In this document: piece by piece, positions 9,834 to 60,005 of the stretch
How the letters are laid out: each line of letters begins with the position of its first letter
How positions within the stretch are numbered: position 1 is the stretch's first letter
Source: a virus
Taxonomy: Duplodnaviria; Heunggongvirae; Uroviricota; Caudoviricetes
IMG/VR virus record: IMGVR_UViG_2693429713_000009
Reading direction: 5' to 3' (one strand)
DNA: 64,000 bases
Notes under the pieces: model-generated
Database searches by the model: none
What the model was told of the DNA's origin: nothing
The model's input: the letters and a program-made list of their open reading frames with translations, nothing else
Translations under genes and position numbers: made by a program

Positions 9834-9887
9834 CCTGTGTGTCTACAAAACATCCCAATGATCGGAAAATGCTCGCTCGATGATTTG

Positions 9888-9917
9888 TGTTAGAAAATTA
9901 ATTTGATGTTTCTAAAT
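9888..9917. promoter_or_regulatory. paired operator-like motifs TGTTAGAAAA-N11-TTTCTAAAT
   Basis: Inverted pair of the recurring motif upstream of the icd/antirepressor unit. Confidence 0.5.
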
Positions 9918-15000: not shown

Positions 15001-18000
15001 AAGCTGTCTTTAATGCTGTGGAAATGGGGCGTCTTGACCTGGCGTCCGGTAAACACCGTGATGCGCAGAAGAAGAACAAGATTAAGGATCAGGCCGCGAA
15101 TACCGGTACAACGAAGAAGCAGAATATCCCGTACTTTGAGGATATGAACTTCGATAGCGTGATTGCCGACGAGGGGCATAACTACCGCAACTCCTTTAAT
15201 GCCGGGCGTGAAGCGGGACAACTGGCATATTTGCCTAACCCGGCAGTATCCAAGATGGCCCGCGACATGGCTGTAAAAGCTGCGTACATGATGAAACGCA
15301 ACAACGGGCGTGGTGTAGTCATGCTGACGGCAACTCCGCTGGTGAACAGTCCGATTGATGCCTTCAACATGCTGTCTACTGTCATTCCGCAGGAAGAGTG
15401 GATGCGCATGGGCATCATTACGCCTGATGATTTCGTTCGTGTGTTTGGCAAAACAGCCACAGTTCAGGTCCAGAAAATTTCCGGGGAAGTGGAAGAGAAG
15501 CAGGGGCTGGTGGGCTTCCAGAACCTTGACGGCCTGCGTGGTATTTTCCATCGTTGGACCACTCTGAAGACTGCTGCAGATGTCGGAGCGACGGTTAAAA
15601 TTCCCGACATCATTGAGAACACCTTGCAGATCCCGATGACAGGGGAGCAGGAGATTGCTTATGAAGAGCTTCGTAAGCGTGCTCAGGAGTTAAGTCGCAA
15701 TGATGAGCTGACAGTCGATGAAAACGGGCATATCACTAACGACAAACCGGATGATTTCATCTTCTCCATCATCCGTGACATGGACAAGGTTGCTATAGAC
15801 CCGGATCTGTATGCCAGTGCGATTACATTCCAGTTCCCCGTTGAGCTTGCAGACCAGGTAAAAGCTATTGCTGATGCCTTGCCAAAAGTAGCTGGCGGTA
15901 AAGTGGCAGATGATGTTGATGAGGCCGAGGAAGACGGCGCTGGCGGGCTGGTCAGTACGCGTACCAGCAAGGTAGTGAAGACCGCTTTTAGTGAACATCC
16001 GACGCATGTTGAAATACGTGCCAGCATTGAACTGGAAGCTGAAATACTTAAGGCTATTGCGGCTGCCGGTATTGATATGCAGCAGGTATCGCACCCCATC
16101 CCGCCGAAGTATGCCGCGCTGATCGAAAATCTTCGTGAAGGTCTGAAGAACGGTAAGCAGATCGTCTTTATTGATGAAAAAGCCCAGCACCAGAAGTTGC
16201 GCCGTATTATCGCCAGTGCACTGCAAATGCCGGAACAGGAGATTGGCATTATCAATGCGACGACAGTTAGCCAGGCTGGCGGCATCAAGCTGAAGAAGGT
16301 GAATAAGCCGACCGAACCTACTCCAAACAAAAACGGTGAATACAAAGAAGGGGCATGGGAAACCTACTACAGCAAACTTGCCCAATATGAGGATTATCTC
16401 TCAGCTAAAAATGATGCTGGCCTTGAGGGCATGGAAGGTATTGCCGCCGACTATAACGAAGGTCGCACGCGTATCATAATCTGTAACAAGAAGGCTGAAG
16501 TAGGTATTAACCTGCACATCGGGACAACCGATATCCACCACCTGACACTACCCTGGACACCAGCCAGTATCGACCAACGAAATGGGCGCGGTGCGCGCGT
16601 AGGTTCACCGCAAGAGAAGGTCAATGTTCACTACTATTGTGGCAAAGGCACATTCGACGACTTCCGTCTGGATACGCTGAAACGTAAGAAAGACTGGATC
16701 AAGATGGTGATGACCTCCGACATGTCAGAGATCGCCAATGGTGATGCGGATGATGCTGATGAACGCGCCATTATGCTGGCGGCAAACCCGGAAGAACGCC
16801 GCGCAATCATGGCTCGCCAGGCGCAAGAGCGTGAAGAACGTCTGAAACTGAAAGCACAGCGCGAGGCCAACAATGCTCTCGATATCTACCTGAAAGCGGC
16901 AAACGCCGCCGGAAAAGATATCGGCATGATGGAGACAGAACTGAAAAGCGCGATGGAACAGATAGAGTATTACCAGCGCAATCTTGACGACCTGATAAAA
17001 GCGGGTACGAACAGGAATGGGCAAAAATACGCGCTTGAGCAGTTGAGTAGCTACAGAAAACGTGCGCGGGTGCTGCGGTTTGCGATCACCAGGGCAAAAG
17101 ACGCGGATACCATAATGAAACGCTCTCGTGGTGATGTGGAGCGCGCTATTAAGTCTGGTGTGCTGGATATCAGTATCGATGTTATTCAGAACCCACAGGA
17201 ATATATGCGCACTGACAAGAATATCCTGTTGCATAAAGGTAGTTATTACCGTGCAGTCATTGATGATCGCGAAACAACAGCGATTGTCCGGGTGGAAAAA
17301 ATTGACGGTGAAAAAGCACAATACCTCTGCCGTATCGCCTGGCTGGATAGAGCAAGTCGTTACGCTCGAGCACCGGGGTCAATCGTTACATTGCCGTTTG
17401 ACTCTGTGATTGAAGCGGTAACTTTTGAAGAGGGGGTAGCTGAATCGCGCGCAACGGCTGCGCGTGGTGTTCAGTGCCACCAGCTATCAACAATACTTAC
17501 TCGCGATCAGTTCTATGATGCTATTCGCAATGGGGTAATGAATGTTATTGCTGGTAAACCTGGTAATGCATGGGGCGGTGGGTCAGCTATTAAATACTGG
17601 GCTTATCGCACAGATGATGGTCAGATCGCGCTGTCATCGACCTATGATGGCATGATAGGACAGAAAATCGGGCGTACATCGGATATTGCACCAGAGCAGT
17701 GGATTTACCCTGATATCAACAATGAGGCGCTGAAGCGTGAAGTGGCAAAAATACAAGCCAGTGATAATCCGCTGAATATCGTGGACGGAGAGGGATTCCT
17801 CCAGGCATTGTATGGGTATGATTACATCCAGGGAATGCAGGCATGGGGCGCACAAGCAACGATGGATGATGTTGCCCAGGAGTTCGAAAACTGGATGGCT
17901 GGGCGTGGTCTGTCAGGTCGTTCGCTTAATAAAGTCACTTCTGAAGATATTCTTAGCTTGTTCCGTAAACCGTCCGGAGAAGGTCTGGAATCATTCTGGA

Positions 18001-23314: not shown

Positions 23315-23391
23315 GGTGGTGTAGCTCAGTAGGATAGAGCAGCAGCCTTCTAAGCTGTCGGTCGGTGGTTCGAATCCACCCACCATCGCCA
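23315..23391 (+). tRNA. tRNA-Arg (anticodon TCT)
   Basis: Cloverleaf by eye: acceptor GGTGGTG/CACCATC, D arm GCTC..GAGC, anticodon loop CTTCTAA, T arm GGTGG-TTCGAAT-CCACC, encoded CCA. Confidence 0.75.
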
Positions 23392-23396
23392 ATTTA

Positions 23397-23483
23397 GGGG
23401 AGTTAGTCCGTAGGGGTAGCGGGGTAGACTGTAAATCTACTGTCATTGCGACTCGGATGGTTCGACTCCATCACTCCCCACCA
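23397..23483 (+). tRNA. tRNA-Tyr (anticodon GTA), long variable arm
   Basis: Acceptor GGGGAGT/ACTCCCC, anticodon stem-loop GTAGA-CTGTAAA-TCTAC, variable arm TGTCATTGCGACTCG, T arm GATGG-TTCGACT-CCATC, CCA. Confidence 0.65.
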
Positions 23484-23487
23484 AATT

Positions 23488-23563
23488 GCCGGTTTTGCTC
23501 AGTTGGTAGAGCGCCTGCCTTGTAAGCAGGATGTCAGCGGTTCGAGTCCGTTAACCGGCACCA
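23488..23563 (+). tRNA. tRNA-Thr (anticodon TGT)
   Basis: Acceptor GCCGGTT/AACCGGC, D arm GCTCAGTTGGTAGAGC, anticodon loop CTTGTAA, T loop TTCGAGT, CCA. Confidence 0.8.
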
Positions 23564-23564
23564 A

Positions 23565-23673
23565 CACAACAGGTAAGGGTATTTTGCGACGTCGGAGATC
23601 GCCGAGCTTGGCAGAGGGTTCGAATCCCTACGAAGTACCCTTACCGTTGTGATGAATGCGCAGGCTGATGCGC
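23565..23673 (+). repeat. long-stem hairpin repeat unit A (tRNA trailer element)
   Basis: CACAAC(A)GGTAAGGGTA pairs with TACCCTTACCGTTGTG; encloses T-arm-like AGGG-TTCGAAT-CCCT; followed by GATGAATGC and GCGCA-GGCTGA-TGCGC hairpin. Confidence 0.6.
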
Positions 23674-23753
23674 GAAAGACATTGCAGCTATTGCGGAAAA
23701 GAGCTGTCCGGCGGGGCAATTAAACGCCCGTGAGAGTCTGAAATAACCGCAAG

Positions 23754-23778
23754 CCGGAGATCAGCACCGGTCATCACA
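23754..23778 (+). other. conserved leader motif CCGGAGATCAGCACCGGTCATCACA
   Basis: One of three near-identical 25-nt copies preceding tRNA or trailer elements. Confidence 0.45.
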
Positions 23779-23856
23779 ACACAACAGGTAAGGGCATTCT
23801 CCTTATGGGGCTTGGCTTAAATGCATCGAGTGCTCTTACCGTTGTGATGAAGTGCA
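23775..23856 (+). repeat. long-stem hairpin repeat unit B
   Basis: ACAACAGGTAAGGGCATTC pairs with GAGTGCTCTTACCGTTGTG, then GATGAAGTGC tail. Confidence 0.55.
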
Positions 23857-23984
23857 GCTCTTAGAAGCAACCAGAAGATAAGCATCTGGCTTCACAACAT
23901 AAACCGCAGGAACGACCAATAAACGGTAGTCCGTATGGAGAACACCCCGTTGAGGAAGAGGCCTGGCCGGAACCGTAACCGGCA

Positions 23985-24101
23985 CTACAACGTTGAGAAC
24001 ACTGGCGTAACGGGGTCATATCCCAATCTATGAATAAATGTTGCGTTGCCGCGTGACAACCAGTGTTCTCAACATTGTGGTGAATGCACAGGCTGATGTG
24101 C
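23985..24101 (+). repeat. long-stem hairpin repeat unit C
   Basis: CTACAACGTTGAGAACACTGG pairs with CCAGTGTTCTCAACATTGTGG; stem sequence differs from unit A but flanks ACAAC and GTGGTGAATGC plus GCACA-GGCTGA-TGTGC hairpin are conserved; preceded by a tRNA-Thr-like 3' remnant. Confidence 0.55.
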
Positions 24102-24148
24102 CGCAACTACAGTAGTGCGCGCTTTGCGGGGCTTGCTACAACCCTGTG

Positions 24149-24173
24149 TCGGAGTTCAGCACCGACCATCACA
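24149..24173 (+). other. conserved leader motif TCGGAGTTCAGCACCGACCATCACA
   Basis: Second copy of 25-nt leader. Confidence 0.45.
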
Positions 24174-24260
24174 GTTTGATTCTCTGGCATGAGCATAACG
24201 CTGAAATAAGTCCAGTCTGGTGCGGTCTGATCACCCGCCGTTAGCTCCACGAAACGGAGC

Positions 24261-24371
24261 GCACAACAGGTAAGAGTATTTGTAGAGTTCGACTCTCTAC
24301 CGTGGGCTTTTTCCCGCGATGCGAGCCATAAATGCTCTTTCCGTTGTGGTGAATGCGCGTTGCTGGCGCGC
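24261..24371 (+). repeat. long-stem hairpin repeat unit D
   Basis: GCACAACAGGTAAGAGTATTT pairs with AAATGCTCTTTCCGTTGTGG; encloses T-arm-like GTAGAG-TTCGACT-CTCTAC; GTGGTGAATGC plus GCGCG hairpin. Confidence 0.55.
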
Positions 24372-24470
24372 AAGTCCGCCCTATGGCAACGAGGCGGTGT
24401 AGTAAATATCGATGCCTCAGTCATCAAGCGTACTGACCGGCCTTATGGGCTATGAAAAAAAGAGGCGCAG

Positions 24471-24494
24471 TCGGCGATCAGCACCGACCATCAC
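24471..24494 (+). other. conserved leader motif TCGGCGATCAGCACCGACCATCACA
   Basis: Third copy, directly upstream of tRNA-Ser-like element. Confidence 0.45.
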
Positions 24495-24501
24495 AATCAC
24501 T

Positions 24502-24588
24502 GGAGAGTAGGGAGCATGGTGCTCAAGCGGCCTTGAAAACCGTCCCATTGCGCAAGCGATGATGGTTCGATTCCATTACTCTCCGCCA
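24502..24588 (+). tRNA. tRNA-Ser-like (anticodon TGA) element, possibly degenerate
   Basis: Acceptor GGAGAGT/ACTCTCC plus G-CCA, anticodon loop CTTGAAA as in bacterial tRNA-Ser(UGA), T arm GATGG-TTCGATT-CCATT, long variable region; D arm and anticodon stem imperfect. Confidence 0.4.
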
Positions 24589-24720
24589 GTGCAACGTTAA
24601 GAGTATTTGGCTAATTAAGCGAATGCCGGAAGCAGAACCGGATCACCAAATGCGTACAGGCGTCATCGCCGCCCAGCCAGCCAAGTGCTCTTACCATTGC
24701 GGTGAATGCGGCTAAGCGCA
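24589..24720 (+). repeat. long-stem hairpin repeat unit E
   Basis: CAACGTTAAGAGTATTTGGCT pairs with AGCCAAGTGCTCTTACCATTGCGG; GTGAATGC plus TGCG-GCTAAG-CGCA hairpin. Confidence 0.5.
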
Positions 24721-24796
24721 CGCGGAACAGTTAAAACAATTTTCCTTAATAGTTAAGTCAAACATCCCGGCGTTAATTGTTAACTGGTTAACGTCA

Positions 24797-24811
24797 CCTG
24801 GAGGCACCAGG
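24797..24811 (+). repeat. CCTGG-AGGCA-CCAGG hairpin (GGAGGCACC family)
   Basis: Same loop as 22589 and 25605 copies with compensatory stem changes. Confidence 0.5.
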
Positions 24812-25211
24812 CACCGCAATCTAATAAAGTTTCAAGCAATGGAGTTTTTGTTGTCAGACTTCAGATATAGATGGTTGTGGAAGGAGAGCCTGTGCATAGT
24901 GCAGTTATTTCTTCCGCTATTTGTCTGCTTTTTCATGCTTCCTGAGCTGAAATACGCAATTTCAGACACTTTAAGCACTATCGTTACTTTTGTGTTTTAT
25001 CTTTACTTTGATTACTTATTGAGCACTAAAATCAATGAATTATCCGAGGAAATGCAAGGTGGCTGTAAGTGATGAATTTTTGGGCGTTTGCCGATAAGAA
25101 CCCTGGTTGGACATTTTTATTTTTGCTGGTGGTTGCATATGGGGTCGAGCAAGCGGCAAAAGCCTTACGCGGTTCTGGCAAAAAGCGTAAGCGGAATTAA
25201 CAGTAATCTGG

Positions 25212-25287
25212 CCCTTTAGCTCAGTGGTTAGAGCAGGCGACTCATAATCGCACGGTCACCGGTTCAAATCCGGTAGGGGCCACCATA
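25212..25287 (+). tRNA. tRNA-Ile2 (anticodon CAT, lysidine type)
   Basis: Near-identical by recall to E. coli ileX: GGCCCTTTAGCTCAGTGGTTAGAGCAGGCGACTCATAATCGC...TTCAAATCC...GGGGCCACCA. Confidence 0.75.
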
Positions 25288-30104: not shown

Positions 30105-31142
30105 TTACCAGAGCTTCGCGGCGTACTGCGTTTGGGGGAATGTGTATCCGTAACGTTCTTCGATTGCTTTGCCGTATTTTTTACGAGCTTCATTCAGTTT
30201 AATGCCGGTCAGGTCGTCTCCAGAGGCCATCATTACGTCTAACAATTCCAGATCCATTTTATCCAGCCTTGCCATTGCTTCACGTGATGTACGTATCTTA
30301 CGCTCAATGATATGGCGAATAGCCGGATCGGCATCCTCCAGCATCTTAGCGGATTTCTGCTTAAGGCTTTCATTGCGAATATCGATGTTCCTTAAGATGT
30401 ACGACTTCGCAACGTAGCTTGGCTGGTGTTTTTCCAGGTCACGAACACGATATAAGTTAAAATCGCCGAGAAGGCTGCAAGGTACCGATTCGACGCCAGA
30501 ATAAATTGTAATGCTCCGGCGTTCACCAACATTATTGACAACGGGGATCGTTGTCTTCGGTAGTCTTGCGAAAACCAATGCGCCATGTGCGCCAACTCTA
30601 AAGCGAGAAAGGGCATTGCTGCCTTCGATGTTTGTTGTCAGCACAACATCTGTATATGCCTCTTTACGCGCCCGGTAGATCTCGCCTTCAGGCTCAGCTT
30701 CAAAGAAGCGCTGTTCTTCTTCAAGAGCACCTACGATTTGAGAAAAAACCCTATTTTTCAGGCTTTTCTTTATGATTTTGTCGTATTTTTTGAGCAATTG
30801 TTCACGTGTAAATGTACGTGTTGTTGTAGCGCTTTGCACAACAACATGCGTGCTTTGATTGGTGTCCTCAATGATGAATGGGATCGGAGAATATACAGAC
30901 TCAACAATGTTCGACGCTTTGCCGTCGGCATCGCGACACATGTCAACGAAGGCTTTCCATTCAGCAAGACATTTTTCAGCTTCTTCTAATATGTTTTGGT
31001 CATGCGTTAATGCAACATGGCGGAATTCCTCGCCAGCATAACTGGTATCATGGAAAACAGAGTTTGCGACCACCAGCTCTTTCCACCGTTCAGCGGTTTG
31101 CAGGAACCGTTTGTACTCTTTCTCGATCGACTTCTTACTCAT
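30105..31142 (-). CDS. C1-like primary repressor (by position)
   Basis: 345 aa, convergent with pacB and divergent from lox-cre as c1 in P1; operator-like motif in its own promoter. Confidence 0.4.
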   Translation of the reverse strand: MSKKSIEKEYKRFLQTAERWKELVVANSVFHDTSYAGEEFRHVALTHDQNILEEAEKCLAEWKAFVDMCRDADGKASNIVESVYSPIPFIIEDTNQSTHVVVQSATTTRTFTREQLLKKYDKIIKKSLKNRVFSQIVGALEEEQRFFEAEPEGEIYRARKEAYTDVVLTTNIEGSNALSRFRVGAHGALVFARLPKTTIPVVNNVGERRSITIYSGVESVPCSLLGDFNLYRVRDLEKHQPSYVAKSYILRNIDIRNESLKQKSAKMLEDADPAIRHIIERKIRTSREAMARLDKMDLELLDVMMASGDDLTGIKLNEARKKYGKAIEERYGYTFPQTQYAAKLW

Positions 31143-31160: not shown

Positions 31161-31170
31161 TTTTCTAACA
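31161..31170. promoter_or_regulatory. operator-like motif TTTTCTAACA in repressor promoter
   Basis: 19 nt upstream of repressor start codon. Confidence 0.5.
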
Positions 31171-31351
31171 TAAAATTACTATGACAAATTTATGTCGAAT
31201 AACAGAGTGAGTAAAGGATCGAACTGTGATTTTTTGTCATCAATTTTAGAAAACCAACTGTATAAACCACACTTCGCAAATTAAAGACCATGAAGGCAAC
31301 GTGTTACTGGTCAGAATCAATCTGTGATGGATTAAAAAAAATCGCCATTTT

Positions 31352-31385
31352 ATAACTTTAAATAATTGGCATTATTTAAAGTTAG
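31352..31385. promoter_or_regulatory. lox-like recombination site
   Basis: ATAACTTTAAATA-ATTGGCAT-TATTTAAAGTTAG: 13-bp inverted arms (12/13) around 8-bp asymmetric spacer, arm ends ATAACTT as in loxP. Confidence 0.7.
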
Positions 31386-45142: not shown

Positions 45143-45184
45143 AATGCATACCGACTCTGTTTTGTTCCGATCGGTAAAATAATA

Positions 45185-45213
45185 TGTTAGAAAACTAAAA
45201 TCAATGTTCTAAC
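45185..45213. promoter_or_regulatory. paired operator-like motifs TGTTAGAAAA-N11-GTTCTAAC
   Basis: Intergenic between phosphatase gene and downstream gene. Confidence 0.45.
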
Positions 45214-46979: not shown

Positions 46980-47773
46980 TGTTTACCTCCTTTTCGAAGC
47001 TGTTCGGCGATATCTTCGAGAACGCCATCAGAGAATGAACGGTCAAAATCGCCTTCCCGCGCATTAGCCATAAACTCAGTAGAGGTAAGAATCATCCGGG
47101 CAATATCCGCGGCGTTCTTCGCAGTATCATCAATAAAACCAGCTTCCCAAGCAGCCAGCATCCTGTTCGCCACAAAGTAAGCGCCCTCCTTGCGTGCTTC
47201 AGTCTTCACTTCATCCAGGAAAGTGTCGGTCGCAGGAGTGGTTTTTTGTGGTGATAGGGCGATACGAATTGTTTCAAGCGCTGGATCTATTTCCACTGTT
47301 GGCACCTTGATAAAACCAAGCTGCACGCCATTCATAATGAACGTGCGGCGATCCTCACATATCGCCTTCAGTCTCGCATTCTCCGCAGCCAGCGCCGCGC
47401 GATTACCCTCCAGCTCTGCAATGCGCTGTTTTGCGGTATCAAGTTCAATCGATAATTTTTCCAACTGCTCTTTATGCTTCTTGTATTCCTGATATGCGTG
47501 CCAGGACTGACCTTTGCGCACACTATCAGTAATATCAGTAATCTGTTCTGGTGTTAGCGTAGTCAGTGGCTGTGCTGGGAAAATCAGCACTTTCCCGGAA
47601 TCCCAATCAAAACCAGCGTGAATTGACTGAACCTCAACTGAGGGTGTTGAACCAATGCTGCCAGGCGAATGAACAACGATCGTTACATCCATATCGCGAC
47701 GATGGCTGTGGTTGTTGGACAAAATACGATTCACCAACTCAGAAAATTTGGAGAATTTCATGCGGAGCCTCAA
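46976..47773 (-). CDS. Ea22-like protein
   Basis: 265 aa; LEGNRAALAAENARLK and C-terminal block shared with 48177-48665. Confidence 0.4.
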   Translation of the reverse strand: MRLRMKFSKFSELVNRILSNNHSHRRDMDVTIVVHSPGSIGSTPSVEVQSIHAGFDWDSGKVLIFPAQPLTTLTPEQITDITDSVRKGQSWHAYQEYKKHKEQLEKLSIELDTAKQRIAELEGNRAALAAENARLKAICEDRRTFIMNGVQLGFIKVPTVEIDPALETIRIALSPQKTTPATDTFLDEVKTEARKEGAYFVANRMLAAWEAGFIDDTAKNAADIARMILTSTEFMANAREGDFDRSFSDGVLEDIAEQLRKGGKQ

Positions 47774-49735: not shown

Positions 49736-49774
49736 GTCCTCCAAACAGTTATCAGGAATGATATTAATGTTTTG

Positions 49775-49805
49775 TGTTAGAAAATCTATTTTGAATATCT
49801 AACCA
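49775..49805. promoter_or_regulatory. operator-like motifs in divergent promoter region
   Basis: TGTTAGAAAA at 49775 and ATCTAACCA at 49797 between leftward operon and ref. Confidence 0.45.
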
Positions 49806-50440: not shown

Positions 50441-50763
50441 ATTTTAAGTTGAATTGTGAATTTCCCCGATGTACATTCACTACCGATTGGTACACCGGTC
50501 AACTTTTTGAGACAAACTGTTTAGTTTTTCGTATTATTGCCGCCGCCATACCTATGGCGGTGCAATATAGGTGGCTGAAAAGCCCCCGTTGACTCACGGT
50601 GTTCCAGCCTTTATTGCGCCGCCACCAGACCGTGGAACAGTCGATGGCGGCTCCGAAAGCAAGGAGTCACTACACTATGAACAACTACAGTCTTTTCCCA
50701 TCACTCGTCGTCCACCACTCACGCGATAATCTGCATTCTTTACTCGCGCCGGGGGTGTCAAAA

Positions 50764-50937
50764 TGACTGTTCGCTACCTCAACTTTCAAATCAAGAACAT
50801 TACTGGCGGTTGCTATGACTGGTTTGTCACTCTCGGAAAAGAAGTGATTACTGGTAAACTGGATGAAGTGAAAGCTAAAGCAATGGCCTACGCCTGCAAG
50901 CAAACCAGGAAGAAATCAACCAAGCATAAAGCCTGAA
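50764..50937 (+). CDS. small hypothetical protein (not in ORF track)
   Basis: 57 aa ORF with GGGGGTG upstream. Confidence 0.3.
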
Positions 50938-50998
50938 GGTGTAGGGTTACCCGGGGTCGTCGGGGCTTTAACTACTAAATAACCGGATTCTCCGCACG

Positions 50999-51310
50999 AT
51001 GAAGAAAATAGATTTCACTTACTCTGCTGCCACAATCCAGCGACGTTTCAGTCTCATAAGGGAAGTAGAACTATCAAAAAACTGTTATCAAATTCTACTG
51101 GATGAAGAGTTTTCGCTGATGATAATGGCAGAAAAATTGGCTATGCCGAATGACCGGCACAAAGTCATTGCCAGCCTGGATCTGGTGACAAATAGATACA
51201 GGGAAACAGAGGAACTACGTGAAGCGGGAGCAATGCGTGACCTGATGGATAATTCCGTTCCCCGTCGTTATCGTACGGGGAACGACATCTCCGTGATTAA
51301 AGGGGCTTAA
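50999..51310 (+). CDS. hypothetical protein
   Basis: 103 aa. Confidence 0.4.
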   Translation: MKKIDFTYSAATIQRRFSLIREVELSKNCYQILLDEEFSLMIMAEKLAMPNDRHKVIASLDLVTNRYRETEELREAGAMRDLMDNSVPRRYRTGNDISVIKGA

Positions 51311-51699
51311 AGCTCACCTGTGCGCTGTTTTTCAAGCACAGATTTAACATTTGGCGCTTTCCCTTTAAAAGAATGGAAAGTGCCACATTTTTCTGTTTTA
51401 ACCTCGCGCAGAGCTTCTCCATCGGCGTTCTGCCATTGATGGGATAATGTCATATCACCGCGAGAAGGAACATCCAGCGAGTACAGCGTATAAGTTCCCC
51501 CCATCTCCGCATACTCCTGGAACACATAGCTCATTACGTCAGATTCAGTTTTTCGGTGTGCGTTATCAACCTTATTCCCATTCAGAAATATGGCATCCGG
51601 ATAGATTTTTATATCAAACCGACCGCACTTAACTTGTAAATTTCCGGCGCTCGCGATCAAAGGGAAAGACGCCAGTAAAGCAATAGCCAATCTTTTCAA
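51307..51699 (-). CDS. exported protein
   Basis: 130 aa; signal peptide MKRLAIALLASFPLIASA. Confidence 0.5.
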   Translation of the reverse strand: MKRLAIALLASFPLIASAGNLQVKCGRFDIKIYPDAIFLNGNKVDNAHRKTESDVMSYVFQEYAEMGGTYTLYSLDVPSRGDMTLSHQWQNADGEALREVKTEKCGTFHSFKGKAPNVKSVLEKQRTGEL

Positions 51700-51719
51700 T
51701 TCTGCCTCCGCTGCGTAAC

Positions 51720-52343
51720 TTATTGCCCGTATTTTTTACACCATTGCTCTGCCATTTGTTTGGCTAAAGGCCCGGCTACTGCACTGTATTCTGCTGTTTT
51801 ACTTTGCACACATGAAGCAGATGGTTTTTTATTTCGCTGCTCGGTTAGTTTGCGCTCATAAGCCATCATGCTATCGAACCCGGCAATATCACTTTGGCGA
51901 AGCATTCCCTTTTTAACCAAAAATTGCTGCCCCTCGGGCACCAATGCAAGCATAAAAAGTGGTTGCAATAACTCACCTAATCCTTGCTGGCGATACACTT
52001 CGAATTGCTGCCATCCCTGACTTAATCTGGAAAGAGTATCTTTGGTTGAGTAACCTGTTTTTGTTATAGCTTTGTCCGTCAGATATGCTGTATATGCAAA
52101 AACGCAAAAGTCAGTTTTACCAATAAACTGAGTTCCAACAGGCCGTAATGGAATGCCCTCCCTCTTGCAAAAGTCCATAATGGCCGCTTGTGAATGATCC
52201 CCACCAGCGTTATTCATAACCTGCTGCCCTGCCCTGAATTGTGCAGGTAACGCAGTTGCATTGGCAGTATTAGCAGATACGCATCCCAACATAGCCGCGA
52301 GCGCGGCCCCTAAAACCCTTAACTTCACTACACCATCCTTCAT
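51720..52343 (-). CDS. putative lipoprotein
   Basis: 207 aa; signal peptide with lipobox-like MLGC. Confidence 0.5.
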   Translation of the reverse strand: MKDGVVKLRVLGAALAAMLGCVSANTANATALPAQFRAGQQVMNNAGGDHSQAAIMDFCKREGIPLRPVGTQFIGKTDFCVFAYTAYLTDKAITKTGYSTKDTLSRLSQGWQQFEVYRQQGLGELLQPLFMLALVPEGQQFLVKKGMLRQSDIAGFDSMMAYERKLTEQRNKKPSASCVQSKTAEYSAVAGPLAKQMAEQWCKKYGQ

Positions 52344-52438
52344 GTAAACAAAATGAAGTTTTATGTTATAAAAACAATTAACTACATCAACATGATTTAG
52401 GCCAAATTTCGGTCAAAAAATAAAATCCACAAAAAGTG

Positions 52439-52584
52439 GTTGACACTATTTTGGAAATCACAAACTGCACATAATCCATCGCGCTAACGGCTCCCGTTGA
52501 AGGTTCTTTTGACGATTAACTTTCAGCCGAAGCGCGGTAGGGAGTCATAACGCCAAAGCAGGCCGCCATGTGCGGCCTTTTTTT
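52439..52584 (+). ncRNA. candidate leader or small RNA (promoter-like TTGACA to terminator)
   Basis: TTGACA at about 52439, then about 110 nt ending in AGGCCGC-CATGT-GCGGCCT plus TTTTTTT directly upstream of the 52612 gene. Confidence 0.3.
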
Positions 52585-52611
52585 GTATCCGTCATCCGTG
52601 GAGGAAGGACA

Positions 52612-53265
52612 ATGGAAAAGATCGCAATATTCAGCCTGACCACCAGCAAGCCTCAAATGCTCACTGCAATACTGAAAGACGGTGCTCTCATTATTAACGA
52701 AGTAAAACCCCTTCCCGCGTCAGCATTGGAGCAAAAGCAAAAAATTCCTCCAGCTATAGCAGCCCTGCGGAAAAGCAAATTCAAGGTTCTAGTAGACGAA
52801 ATTACGCCAACGATCTCCGCTGGCACCGGAGCAAGCCAGGTGACTCTCAAGACCCGTCATGCCGATGGTAGAGCAGCAATCATCGTCGGGATGGAAAGAT
52901 ACAGAGAGTTAAAACTCCAGAAACTATTATCCCTGCCGCAAAATAACAAAGGTGCTTTCGAAATCCCCGACTCTATCGTTGATACCGAATACAACGGTAA
53001 CGGAGAAGAAGTCTACAGGGTGAACTGGCAGGATATCAGGCCGGAGCATATTCTGATGATCCTGTGTTGCTACGCGACCGTATACCACAACGTTGCCAGT
53101 GCAGATTACGTAGAGCAGATGACCGGTACAGTCGAGAAAGAGCAAAAAACAGGCATACTCGCTTCGTTCCTGTCCATTATTGGGCATGAAAAAGTTAAAG
53201 CAGGCACCTCCCAGCCAAAGTCACTGGCTGGGAAAGAAGTTGATGAAGATACCGTGATACTTTGA
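52612..53265 (+). CDS. hypothetical protein
   Basis: 217 aa from ATG with GGAGGAAGG upstream. Confidence 0.45.
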   Translation: MEKIAIFSLTTSKPQMLTAILKDGALIINEVKPLPASALEQKQKIPPAIAALRKSKFKVLVDEITPTISAGTGASQVTLKTRHADGRAAIIVGMERYRELKLQKLLSLPQNNKGAFEIPDSIVDTEYNGNGEEVYRVNWQDIRPEHILMILCCYATVYHNVASADYVEQMTGTVEKEQKTGILASFLSIIGHEKVKAGTSQPKSLAGKEVDEDTVIL

Positions 53266-55883: not shown

Positions 55884-55945
55884 ACAAGCTATCAAACCTT
55901 CTAATTTTTATTTTAGATAAAAAGCGGTCCTCCAGACCGCCAAAC

Positions 55946-56688: not shown

Positions 56689-56756
56689 TGAATTGAAATC
56701 ACAATCTCCAGACAATGCACCCTCGATACCTGATAAATCGACCTTTGAGGATGCTT

Positions 56757-59946: not shown

Positions 59947-59962
59947 AAAATGCACCCATTTA

Positions 59963-59992
59963 TGTTAGATAATTAACATGCATTTTCTAACA
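59963..59992. promoter_or_regulatory. paired operator-like motifs TGTTAGATAA-N10-TTTTCTAACA
   Basis: Inverted pair upstream of rdgC. Confidence 0.5.
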
Positions 59993-60005
59993 CAAATGGT
60001 GAGAC

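Follow-up and report, generated by a model that had tools for sequence, protein, structure and literature searches.

In this study, we analyzed two adjacent minus-strand genes, here called ORF A and ORF B (ORF, open reading frame), in a 64,000-nucleotide stretch of the virus record IMGVR_UViG_2693429713_000009 (IMG/VR; Caudoviricetes). This whole stretch is referred to below as the window. Our results point to an accessory operon of a D6/P1-type phage-plasmid whose products may act as a Sim-like periplasmic barrier to superinfecting phages, a reading drawn by analogy to which we give a probability of about 0.4. An earlier note on this DNA had listed the two adjacent ORFs, both of which were indeed present, and had suggested that they serve superinfection exclusion. 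We found contextual support for this suggestion, in that the A-B pair occupies the slot of a simB-like gene in phage D6 and relatives of ORF A adjoin SimB homologues, which places the pair in, or in linkage with, a sim-type locus. Homology to SimC, on the other hand, was not found.

Association with sim-type superimmunity genes

Divergent from mat, phage D6 carries D6_79 (MF356679; L002 4141-5037), a gene labelled 'simB-like superimmunity accessory' whose product shares 52% identity with P1 SimB over the SimB domain. Pairwise alignment revealed that DNA identity between the window and D6 extends from mat through the intergenic region into codon 17 of ORF A, and ends exactly at the codons for the tetrapeptide MLGC. 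Because the identity breaks at these codons, the annotated N-terminus of D6_79, VKLMVLGTALAAKM, was read as a remnant of the ORF A signal peptide, 14 codons of ORF A being joined to the gene where its start is annotated. An intact homologue of D6_79 in E. coli pF719-4 starts with MKNGKRFSATML. Judging from these sequences, the start codon of D6_79 is probably mis-annotated, or else the gene is a recombination fusion.

ORF A relatives directly adjoined SimB homologues in three other plasmid lineages (L005, L011 and L021). In the intact form on E. coli pF719-4, mat comes first, followed by an ORF A-like gene and then by a SimB-like gene whose product is 90% identical to D6_79. A Citrobacter freundii contig carries, in this order, an exported 123-amino acid (aa) gene, the ORF A-like gene P0040, a SimB homologue (E 5e-30 to P1 SimB) and a KilA-N antirepressor gene, and the metagenomic contig L011 carries YfjT-like, SimB-like and ORF A-like genes in that order. 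In L011 the ORF A relative comes after the simB-like gene, as simC comes after simB in the simA, simB, simC order of phage P1.

Another group of contigs resembling phage-plasmids, one from a Citrobacter freundii assembly (L005 5609-6850) and two metagenomic (L011 5180-6597 and L012 4783-5868), had operons for three exported proteins that precede an antirepressor gene. These operons encode an ORF A-like protein, a SimB-like protein and either a YfjT-like protein or the 123-aa orphan. Because their order varied, the sim-type locus gives the impression of a set of small periplasmic proteins that is being shuffled.

The A-B locus and P1 sim are both clusters of small signal-peptide-bearing proteins in an accessory, hypervariable region of a P1-type phage-plasmid, and ORF A relatives are immediate operon neighbours of SimB homologues. 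In D6-like plasmids, one conserved promoter and 5' end is followed either by the A-B pair or by the simB-like gene. In P1-like phage-plasmids, sim is one of eight hypervariable regions (PMC9603915), and the simABC genes of P1 are non-essential (PMC10695390). The two systems also differ, since the A-B locus adjoins mat rather than c4 and A and B can be fused into one chain.

Distribution on phage-plasmids

The 1,037 bp of the pair region were 100% identical to plasmid pGMI14-002_2 (92,366 bp) of Salmonella enterica serovar Concord, and at least 98.5% identical to dozens of non-mobilisable plasmids of 88-97 kb from E. coli, Shigella and Salmonella. The window contains genes for Ref nuclease, Mat, gp26/gp25-type baseplate and tail proteins, HigBA, RdgC and glutamine-tRNA ligase (glnS), and on sequence grounds it is a P1/D6-type phage-plasmid matching a Salmonella D6-like phage-plasmid. 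No SimA, SimB or SimC homologue was present anywhere on the plasmid that matches the window.

Escherichia phage D6 was the sole phage record with nearby DNA similarity in megablast searches (window positions 52292-52700), and it lacks both ORFs. Neither ORF A nor ORF B had a tblastn match among 50,697 phage records, and their genes were recorded solely in plasmid or prophage entries. The idea that the two genes belong to the accessory cargo of a temperate phage-plasmid agreed with what we observed. As a separate matter, a compositionally foreign insertion was ruled out, the G+C content of 0.42-0.47 being similar to that of the flanks.

Pairing and fusion of the two genes

ORF A was followed by ORF B, with order and spacing unchanged, even on plasmids whose ORF A was merely 64-67% identical to the one studied here. 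This arrangement was seen in plasmids of E. coli, E. marmotae, E. fergusonii, Shigella and Salmonella, and a decayed pair of A followed by a B-like gene was found on a Vibrio parahaemolyticus plasmid. Since only 20 nt separate the stop codon of ORF A from the start of ORF B, both look like one operon.

In addition, four single-chain A-B fusions were identified (P0024, P0027, P0041 and a 277-aa protein of Enterobacter hormaechei p60214CZ_1). In each of them the ORF A domain precedes the ORF B domain, the latter being 61-69% identical to ORF B in three and 41% identical in P0027. Both of the fusions that could be placed (P0041 and that of p60214CZ_1) were divergent from a Mat homologue, which is the same slot as that of the A-B pair. 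The existence of natural A-B fusions argues, by the gene-fusion argument, that A and B are functional and probably physical partners, and from their sequences the two proteins probably work together.

Export to the periplasm

Signal peptides were called by sequence heuristics combined with conservation across relatives. The N-termini of both proteins displayed an n-region with a charge of +2 and an uncharged hydrophobic core (best 10-residue Kyte-Doolittle mean 2.4), followed by an AxA-type cleavage site (Table 1). The features of Sec-dependent signal peptidase I substrates, namely a positive n-region, a hydrophobic h-region 10-15 residues long and small residues at both -3 and -1, were present in both. 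In the AlphaFold2 (AF2) models, residues 1-27 of ORF A were disordered and residues 1-16 of ORF B had a low predicted local distance difference test (pLDDT) score. Of the 101 ORFs in the window with a length of 100 aa or more, only four satisfied the signal-peptide heuristic, namely ORF A, ORF B and the ORFs at 47190-47492 and 15690-16385.

The same signal-peptide layout was common to every complete relative. Relatives of ORF B carry the sites ANA followed by GNLQ and ASA followed by ENYA. In complete relatives of ORF A, a small-x-small site lies one to three residues ahead of a conserved (A/P)(L/M)P motif, which appears to begin the mature protein of this family. The claim that both ORFs start with signal peptides was therefore upheld by the heuristic features, by their rarity in the window and by their conservation in relatives, and both proteins are very probably exported to the periplasm via Sec signal peptides.

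The positions invariant in the ORF A family were C59, C80, G97-Y98-S99, T103, P128, G138 and D152. A second Cys pair, C178/C202, was found in most full-length members and was nearly invariant among close relatives, and ORF B retains two Cys. The pairs C59/C80 and C178/C202 of ORF A and the Cys pair of ORF B could form periplasmic disulfides.

Protein families, folds and allelic divergence

Both proteins are already in databases as hypothetical proteins. Neither had a match in Pfam, NCBIfam, PADLOC or PDB sequences when single proteins and family alignments were searched, and no PADLOC-DB defence-protein model matched either of them at E <= 1. In PHROGs, ORF A corresponds to PHROG 12786 and ORF B to PHROG 13864, both of which are families of unknown function.

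The AF2 model of ORF A (mean pLDDT 82.7) contained nine helices after the disordered signal peptide, and that of ORF B (mean pLDDT 87.3) contained nine strands and a C-terminal helix. ORF A is thus predicted to be an all-alpha protein of an orphan family; its model had no match among solved structures and none among viral models (BFVD). ORF B, also of an orphan family, is predicted to be a small up-and-down beta-barrel, which is a generic fold rather than a family. It resembled calycin/avidin-type barrels, including the periplasmic proteins VtrC/ToxS and PliC, at an identity of 3-12% and with no family match. As modelled, this likeness would be to a very common fold, so that a ligand or target is not inferable from it.

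Between allele groups, the core of ORF A (codons 25-160) showed a proportion of synonymous differences (pS) of 0.82-0.86, which is saturated, and a proportion of nonsynonymous differences (pN) of 0.21-0.27. The ORF A signal peptide, one type of ORF A C-terminal tail and ORF B had a pS of 0.23-0.37 and a low pN. A second, unrelated C-terminal tail of ORF A also exists. On these sequence comparisons, the pattern is one of old allelic divergence within younger, recombining flanks. Fast positive selection on ORF A was ruled out, given the saturation of synonymous sites in its core.

Promoter region and candidate operator

A 15-bp motif, TTTTRTGTTAKAAAA, was found at nine sites in the window (Table 1) compared with 0.76 expected (~12-fold enrichment), and none of 100 shuffles reached nine. 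These sites included one upstream of the C4 RNA gene (Rfam), two by the cre-neighbouring c1-like gene, one upstream of ref and, in front of the rdgC/hrdC gene, an inverted pair. The 345-aa product of the c1-like gene is a distant homologue of P1 C1 (21% identity, E 2.5e-8). Since the sites fall where P1 carries C1 operators, we read the motif as a D6-type C1 operator. The P1 C1 operator consensus, ATTGCTCTAATAAATTT, had no match within the window at up to 3 mismatches.

One of the nine sites precedes ORF A, and its plus strand holds an extended -10-like sequence, TGTTATAAA. A strict sigma-70 scan of positions 50700-52700 returned no promoter. In a relaxed scan, ORF A had only weak sigma-70 candidates, each with its -10 inside this site or its transcription start just upstream of it. 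The candidate operator lies on or just past every ORF A promoter candidate, and therefore a bound repressor should silence the operon in a stable lysogen. By analogy with P1, this arrangement suggests that the A-B operon is active in the lytic or early phase, upon infection or induction, and not in the lysogen.

Proposed function and alternative explanations

In the exclusion mechanism that we propose, C1 would repress the A-B operon in the stable lysogen, and expression would occur on infection or induction. An A-B complex would then act like P1 Sim or T4 Imm/Sp as a periplasmic barrier, halting a second P1/D6-like phage after adsorption, at the step of cell-wall penetration or DNA transfer. 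In this complex, specificity would reside in the deeply diverged core of ORF A, with the conserved barrel of ORF B as the common part. The logic resembles that of Imm and Sp, envelope-located proteins that are made by an active phage early in infection and that keep a second phage from penetrating the cell wall or passing its DNA into the cell (for a summary of T4 exclusion, see PMC13128918). However, Imm and Sp are membrane proteins of unrelated sequence, whereas the predictions for ORF A and ORF B are of soluble, periplasmic proteins, and the proposed timing of A-B expression is deduced from the candidate operator. A bolder form of the proposal is that A-B is an unrecognised two-component periplasmic exclusion system that functionally replaces SimB/SimC. 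It would pair a conserved beta-barrel with an all-alpha subunit that has a fold unseen among solved structures and anciently diverged specificity alleles. Without C1 the system would be switched on, and it would then obstruct the DNA-entry machinery of incoming relatives. This form is more doubtful than the general proposal.

Several observations weigh against an exclusion role. ORF A and ORF B had no detectable homology to SimA, SimB or SimC (nothing better than E 0.05 in BLASTP), and hhalign of both family profiles against SimC gave a probability of 0.1-0.2%. To our knowledge, SimC is the sole experimentally defined exclusion protein of the sim locus, reportedly from the experiments of Kliem and Dreiseikelmann in 1989 and of Maillou and Dreiseikelmann in 1990. 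Adjacency to SimB is thus guilt by association with an uncharacterised gene, and neither fold indicates a mechanism. The site upstream of ORF A is a candidate C1-type operator by motif enrichment and analogy only, and it could instead, or also, regulate mat. Finally, not all relatives lie in a phage setting: P0007 lies among insertion sequence elements, near Ail/Lom and M60 peptidase genes, and P0042 lies in a chromosome-like neighbourhood.

Among the other explanations, the earlier note had favored a lipoprotein, and MLGC is indeed present as a lipobox-like sequence. Its carrier, however, is not the second ORF as stated there but the first-transcribed ORF A, which is second merely by plus-strand coordinate. 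If ORF A were a true lipoprotein, Cys21 would be acylated, the precursor cleaved by LspA and the product sorted to the outer membrane (Val at +2, Ser at +3), where it could block a receptor or DNA entry like Cor/Llp. This would fit the match of MLGC to the permissive PROSITE pattern PS00013, the 11-residue uncharged stretch before the Cys and the retention of the Cys in the closest alleles (P0001, P0004, P0005 and P0006); some unusual residues at -2 and -3 are also tolerated in E. coli lipoproteins, as in LMGC of NlpE. But MLGC fails the DOLOP pattern [LVI][ASTVI][GAS]C as well as G+LPPv2, and PS00013 also matches an h-region Cys in P0042. Moreover, the Cys is a Gly in the 67%-identical clade (P0002, P0003 and P0008) and is missing in P0007, P0022-P0042 (distant relatives from an exhaustive profile search) and the fusions. 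Relatives without it all keep an AxA-type site 8 residues further on, ahead of the conserved mature N-terminus. The invariant acylated Cys expected of a lipoprotein family was not found in the ORF A family. Because the Cys is not conserved, whereas lipoprotein families keep their acylated Cys, the ORF A family appears to be periplasmic and soluble, and by sequence ORF A and ORF B are probably not lipoproteins. The Cor/Llp proteins of phi80, N15, T1 and T5 are also small, exported and phage-encoded, but they need a canonical lipobox Cys, and neither protein resembled the Cor/Llp families, any PHROG of known function or any defence model (Pfam, PHROGs, PADLOC and NCBIfam). The lipoprotein call thus failed at the family level, and we regard a receptor-blocking lipoprotein as very unlikely.

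A periplasmic function in the lytic cycle, such as lysis timing or control of a signal-anchor-release (SAR) endolysin, protection against lysis from without, or maturation linked to mat and pmgF, would agree with the candidate C1 operator at the promoter, which implies expression without the repressor, and with the position of the operon between mat and a pmgF-like gene. Periplasmic lysis regulators are known in other phages, for example RI of T4. But the slot is exchangeable, and because the viable phage D6 has neither gene, A and B should not be core lytic functions; lysis genes are located elsewhere on the plasmid, and the anciently diverged core alleles of ORF A fit a role in conflict or specificity better than housekeeping. 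Such a function is accordingly unlikely, and we judge a host-directed conversion or immunity factor to be just as unlikely. The latter could be a periplasmic inhibitor of colicins, type VI effectors or host lysozyme, or an aid to envelope fitness or virulence. The combination of a Pfam MliC match and a specific structural match, as expected of MliC/PliC lysozyme inhibitors, was not found. Chance or decaying ORFs without function would account for the truncated or frameshifted copies P0009, P0010, P0017, P0020 and P0021. This explanation is extremely improbable in view of purifying selection (dN/dS about 0.08-0.14 versus diverged copies, dN and dS being nonsynonymous and synonymous substitution rates), the confident AF2 folds and the fusions that preserve both domains. 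Furthermore, 38 of 5,426 complete E. coli genomes contained a near-complete pair, which was almost always plasmid-borne, and intact copies were conserved across five genera.

Sequence features and neighbouring genes

Table 1. Positions in the window of ORF A, ORF B and associated features.
Feature	Position	Strand	Description
ORF A	51720-52343	-	207 aa from ATG at 52343, or 202 aa from GTG at 52328
ORF A signal peptide	52257-52343	-	residues 1-29 from ATG; predicted signal peptidase I site between ANA and TALP, after residue 29
MLGC tetrapeptide	52281-52292	-	ORF A residues 18-21; atypical, not conserved
ORF B	51307-51699	-	130 aa, TTG start
ORF B signal peptide	51646-51699	-	residues 1-18; predicted cleavage between ASA and GNLQ, after residue 18
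ORF B Shine-Dalgarno sequence	51705-51709	-	GGAGG, with the TTG 5 nt further on; read from sequence
Terminator-like hairpin	51141-51162	-	~145 nt past the ORF B stop, within the pmgF-like gene; consensus scan only
Landing pad	52292-52611		first ~17 ORF A codons and ORF A-mat intergenic region; 96.6% identity to D6, there preceding the simB-like gene
Candidate D6-type C1 operator	52359-52373	+	TTTTATGTTATAAAA; 16 nt ahead of the ATG of ORF A; kept in D6
TTTTRTGTTAKAAAA sites	9883-9897, 31161-31175, 31348-31362, 45180-45194, 49770-49784, 52359-52373, 55906-55920, 59958-59972, 59983-59997		nine sites in the window
c1-like gene	30105-31142	-	next to cre
pmgF-like gene	50999-51310	+	103 aa; 84% identity to D6 orf81

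The alternative GTG start of ORF A lies five codons past the ATG and has the better Shine-Dalgarno sequence (AAGGA, 52340-52336, with a 7-nt spacer); it is also the start chosen by the Prokaryotic Genome Annotation Pipeline (PGAP). The operon is flanked by the divergent mat gene and by the pmgF-like gene, which is convergent with ORF B, their stop codons sharing 4 nt. PGAP labels the pmgF-like gene 'transcriptional regulator', and D6 orf81 is labelled as similar to P1 pmgF (putative morphogenetic function). The terminator-like hairpin downstream of ORF B is a possible end of the A-B transcript.

Two further elements were observed between ORF A and mat. A strong GC-rich hairpin followed by a T-run, AGGCCGCCATGTGCGGCCT TTTTTTG, is located at 52560-52578(+), ~35 nt upstream of the mat start and within the region that is 96.6% identical to D6. 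It could stop plus-strand transcription antisense to ORF B and ORF A, or attenuate mat. The 16-mer GGAAATCACAAACTGC occurred on the plus strand, with at most 2 mismatches, at 52453-52468, 678-693 and 56695-56710, and two of these sites precede mat and a tail gene. The 16-mer may act as a common regulatory element, for example a late promoter.

The relative P0007 (58% identity), which has a different signal peptide and no Cys, stands alone with no ORF B after it in L007-L009, on E. coli plasmids of 94-168 kb. Its neighbours are a gene for an Ail/Lom-type outer-membrane protein and a gene for a 1,525-aa M60/SslE-like peptidase. Elsewhere on the phage-plasmid, we observed a full-length glutamine-tRNA ligase gene (window position ~62522 to the end, minus strand; L001 23216-24877) and a cluster of four tRNA genes at 23315-25282.

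Implications for phage-plasmid biology

Phage-plasmids of the P1/D6 type, which carry resistance genes, occur widely in E. coli, Salmonella and Shigella, and the determinants of their coexistence and invasion are poorly understood. The new elements of this study are the family-level assignment of ORF A as a non-lipoprotein, the evidence from A-B fusions, and the recurrent linkage to SimB together with the shared 5' region; also new are the candidate operator and the finding that ORF A matches no solved structure. Even if the pair has no role in exclusion, it represents two uncharacterised periplasmic families, one of them without a match among solved structures. Behind a conserved regulatory region, a second periplasmic pair that is unrelated to Sim alternates with simB-type genes, with which it is also associated, and it may therefore provide a handle on the role of SimB as well as a candidate new exclusion module.

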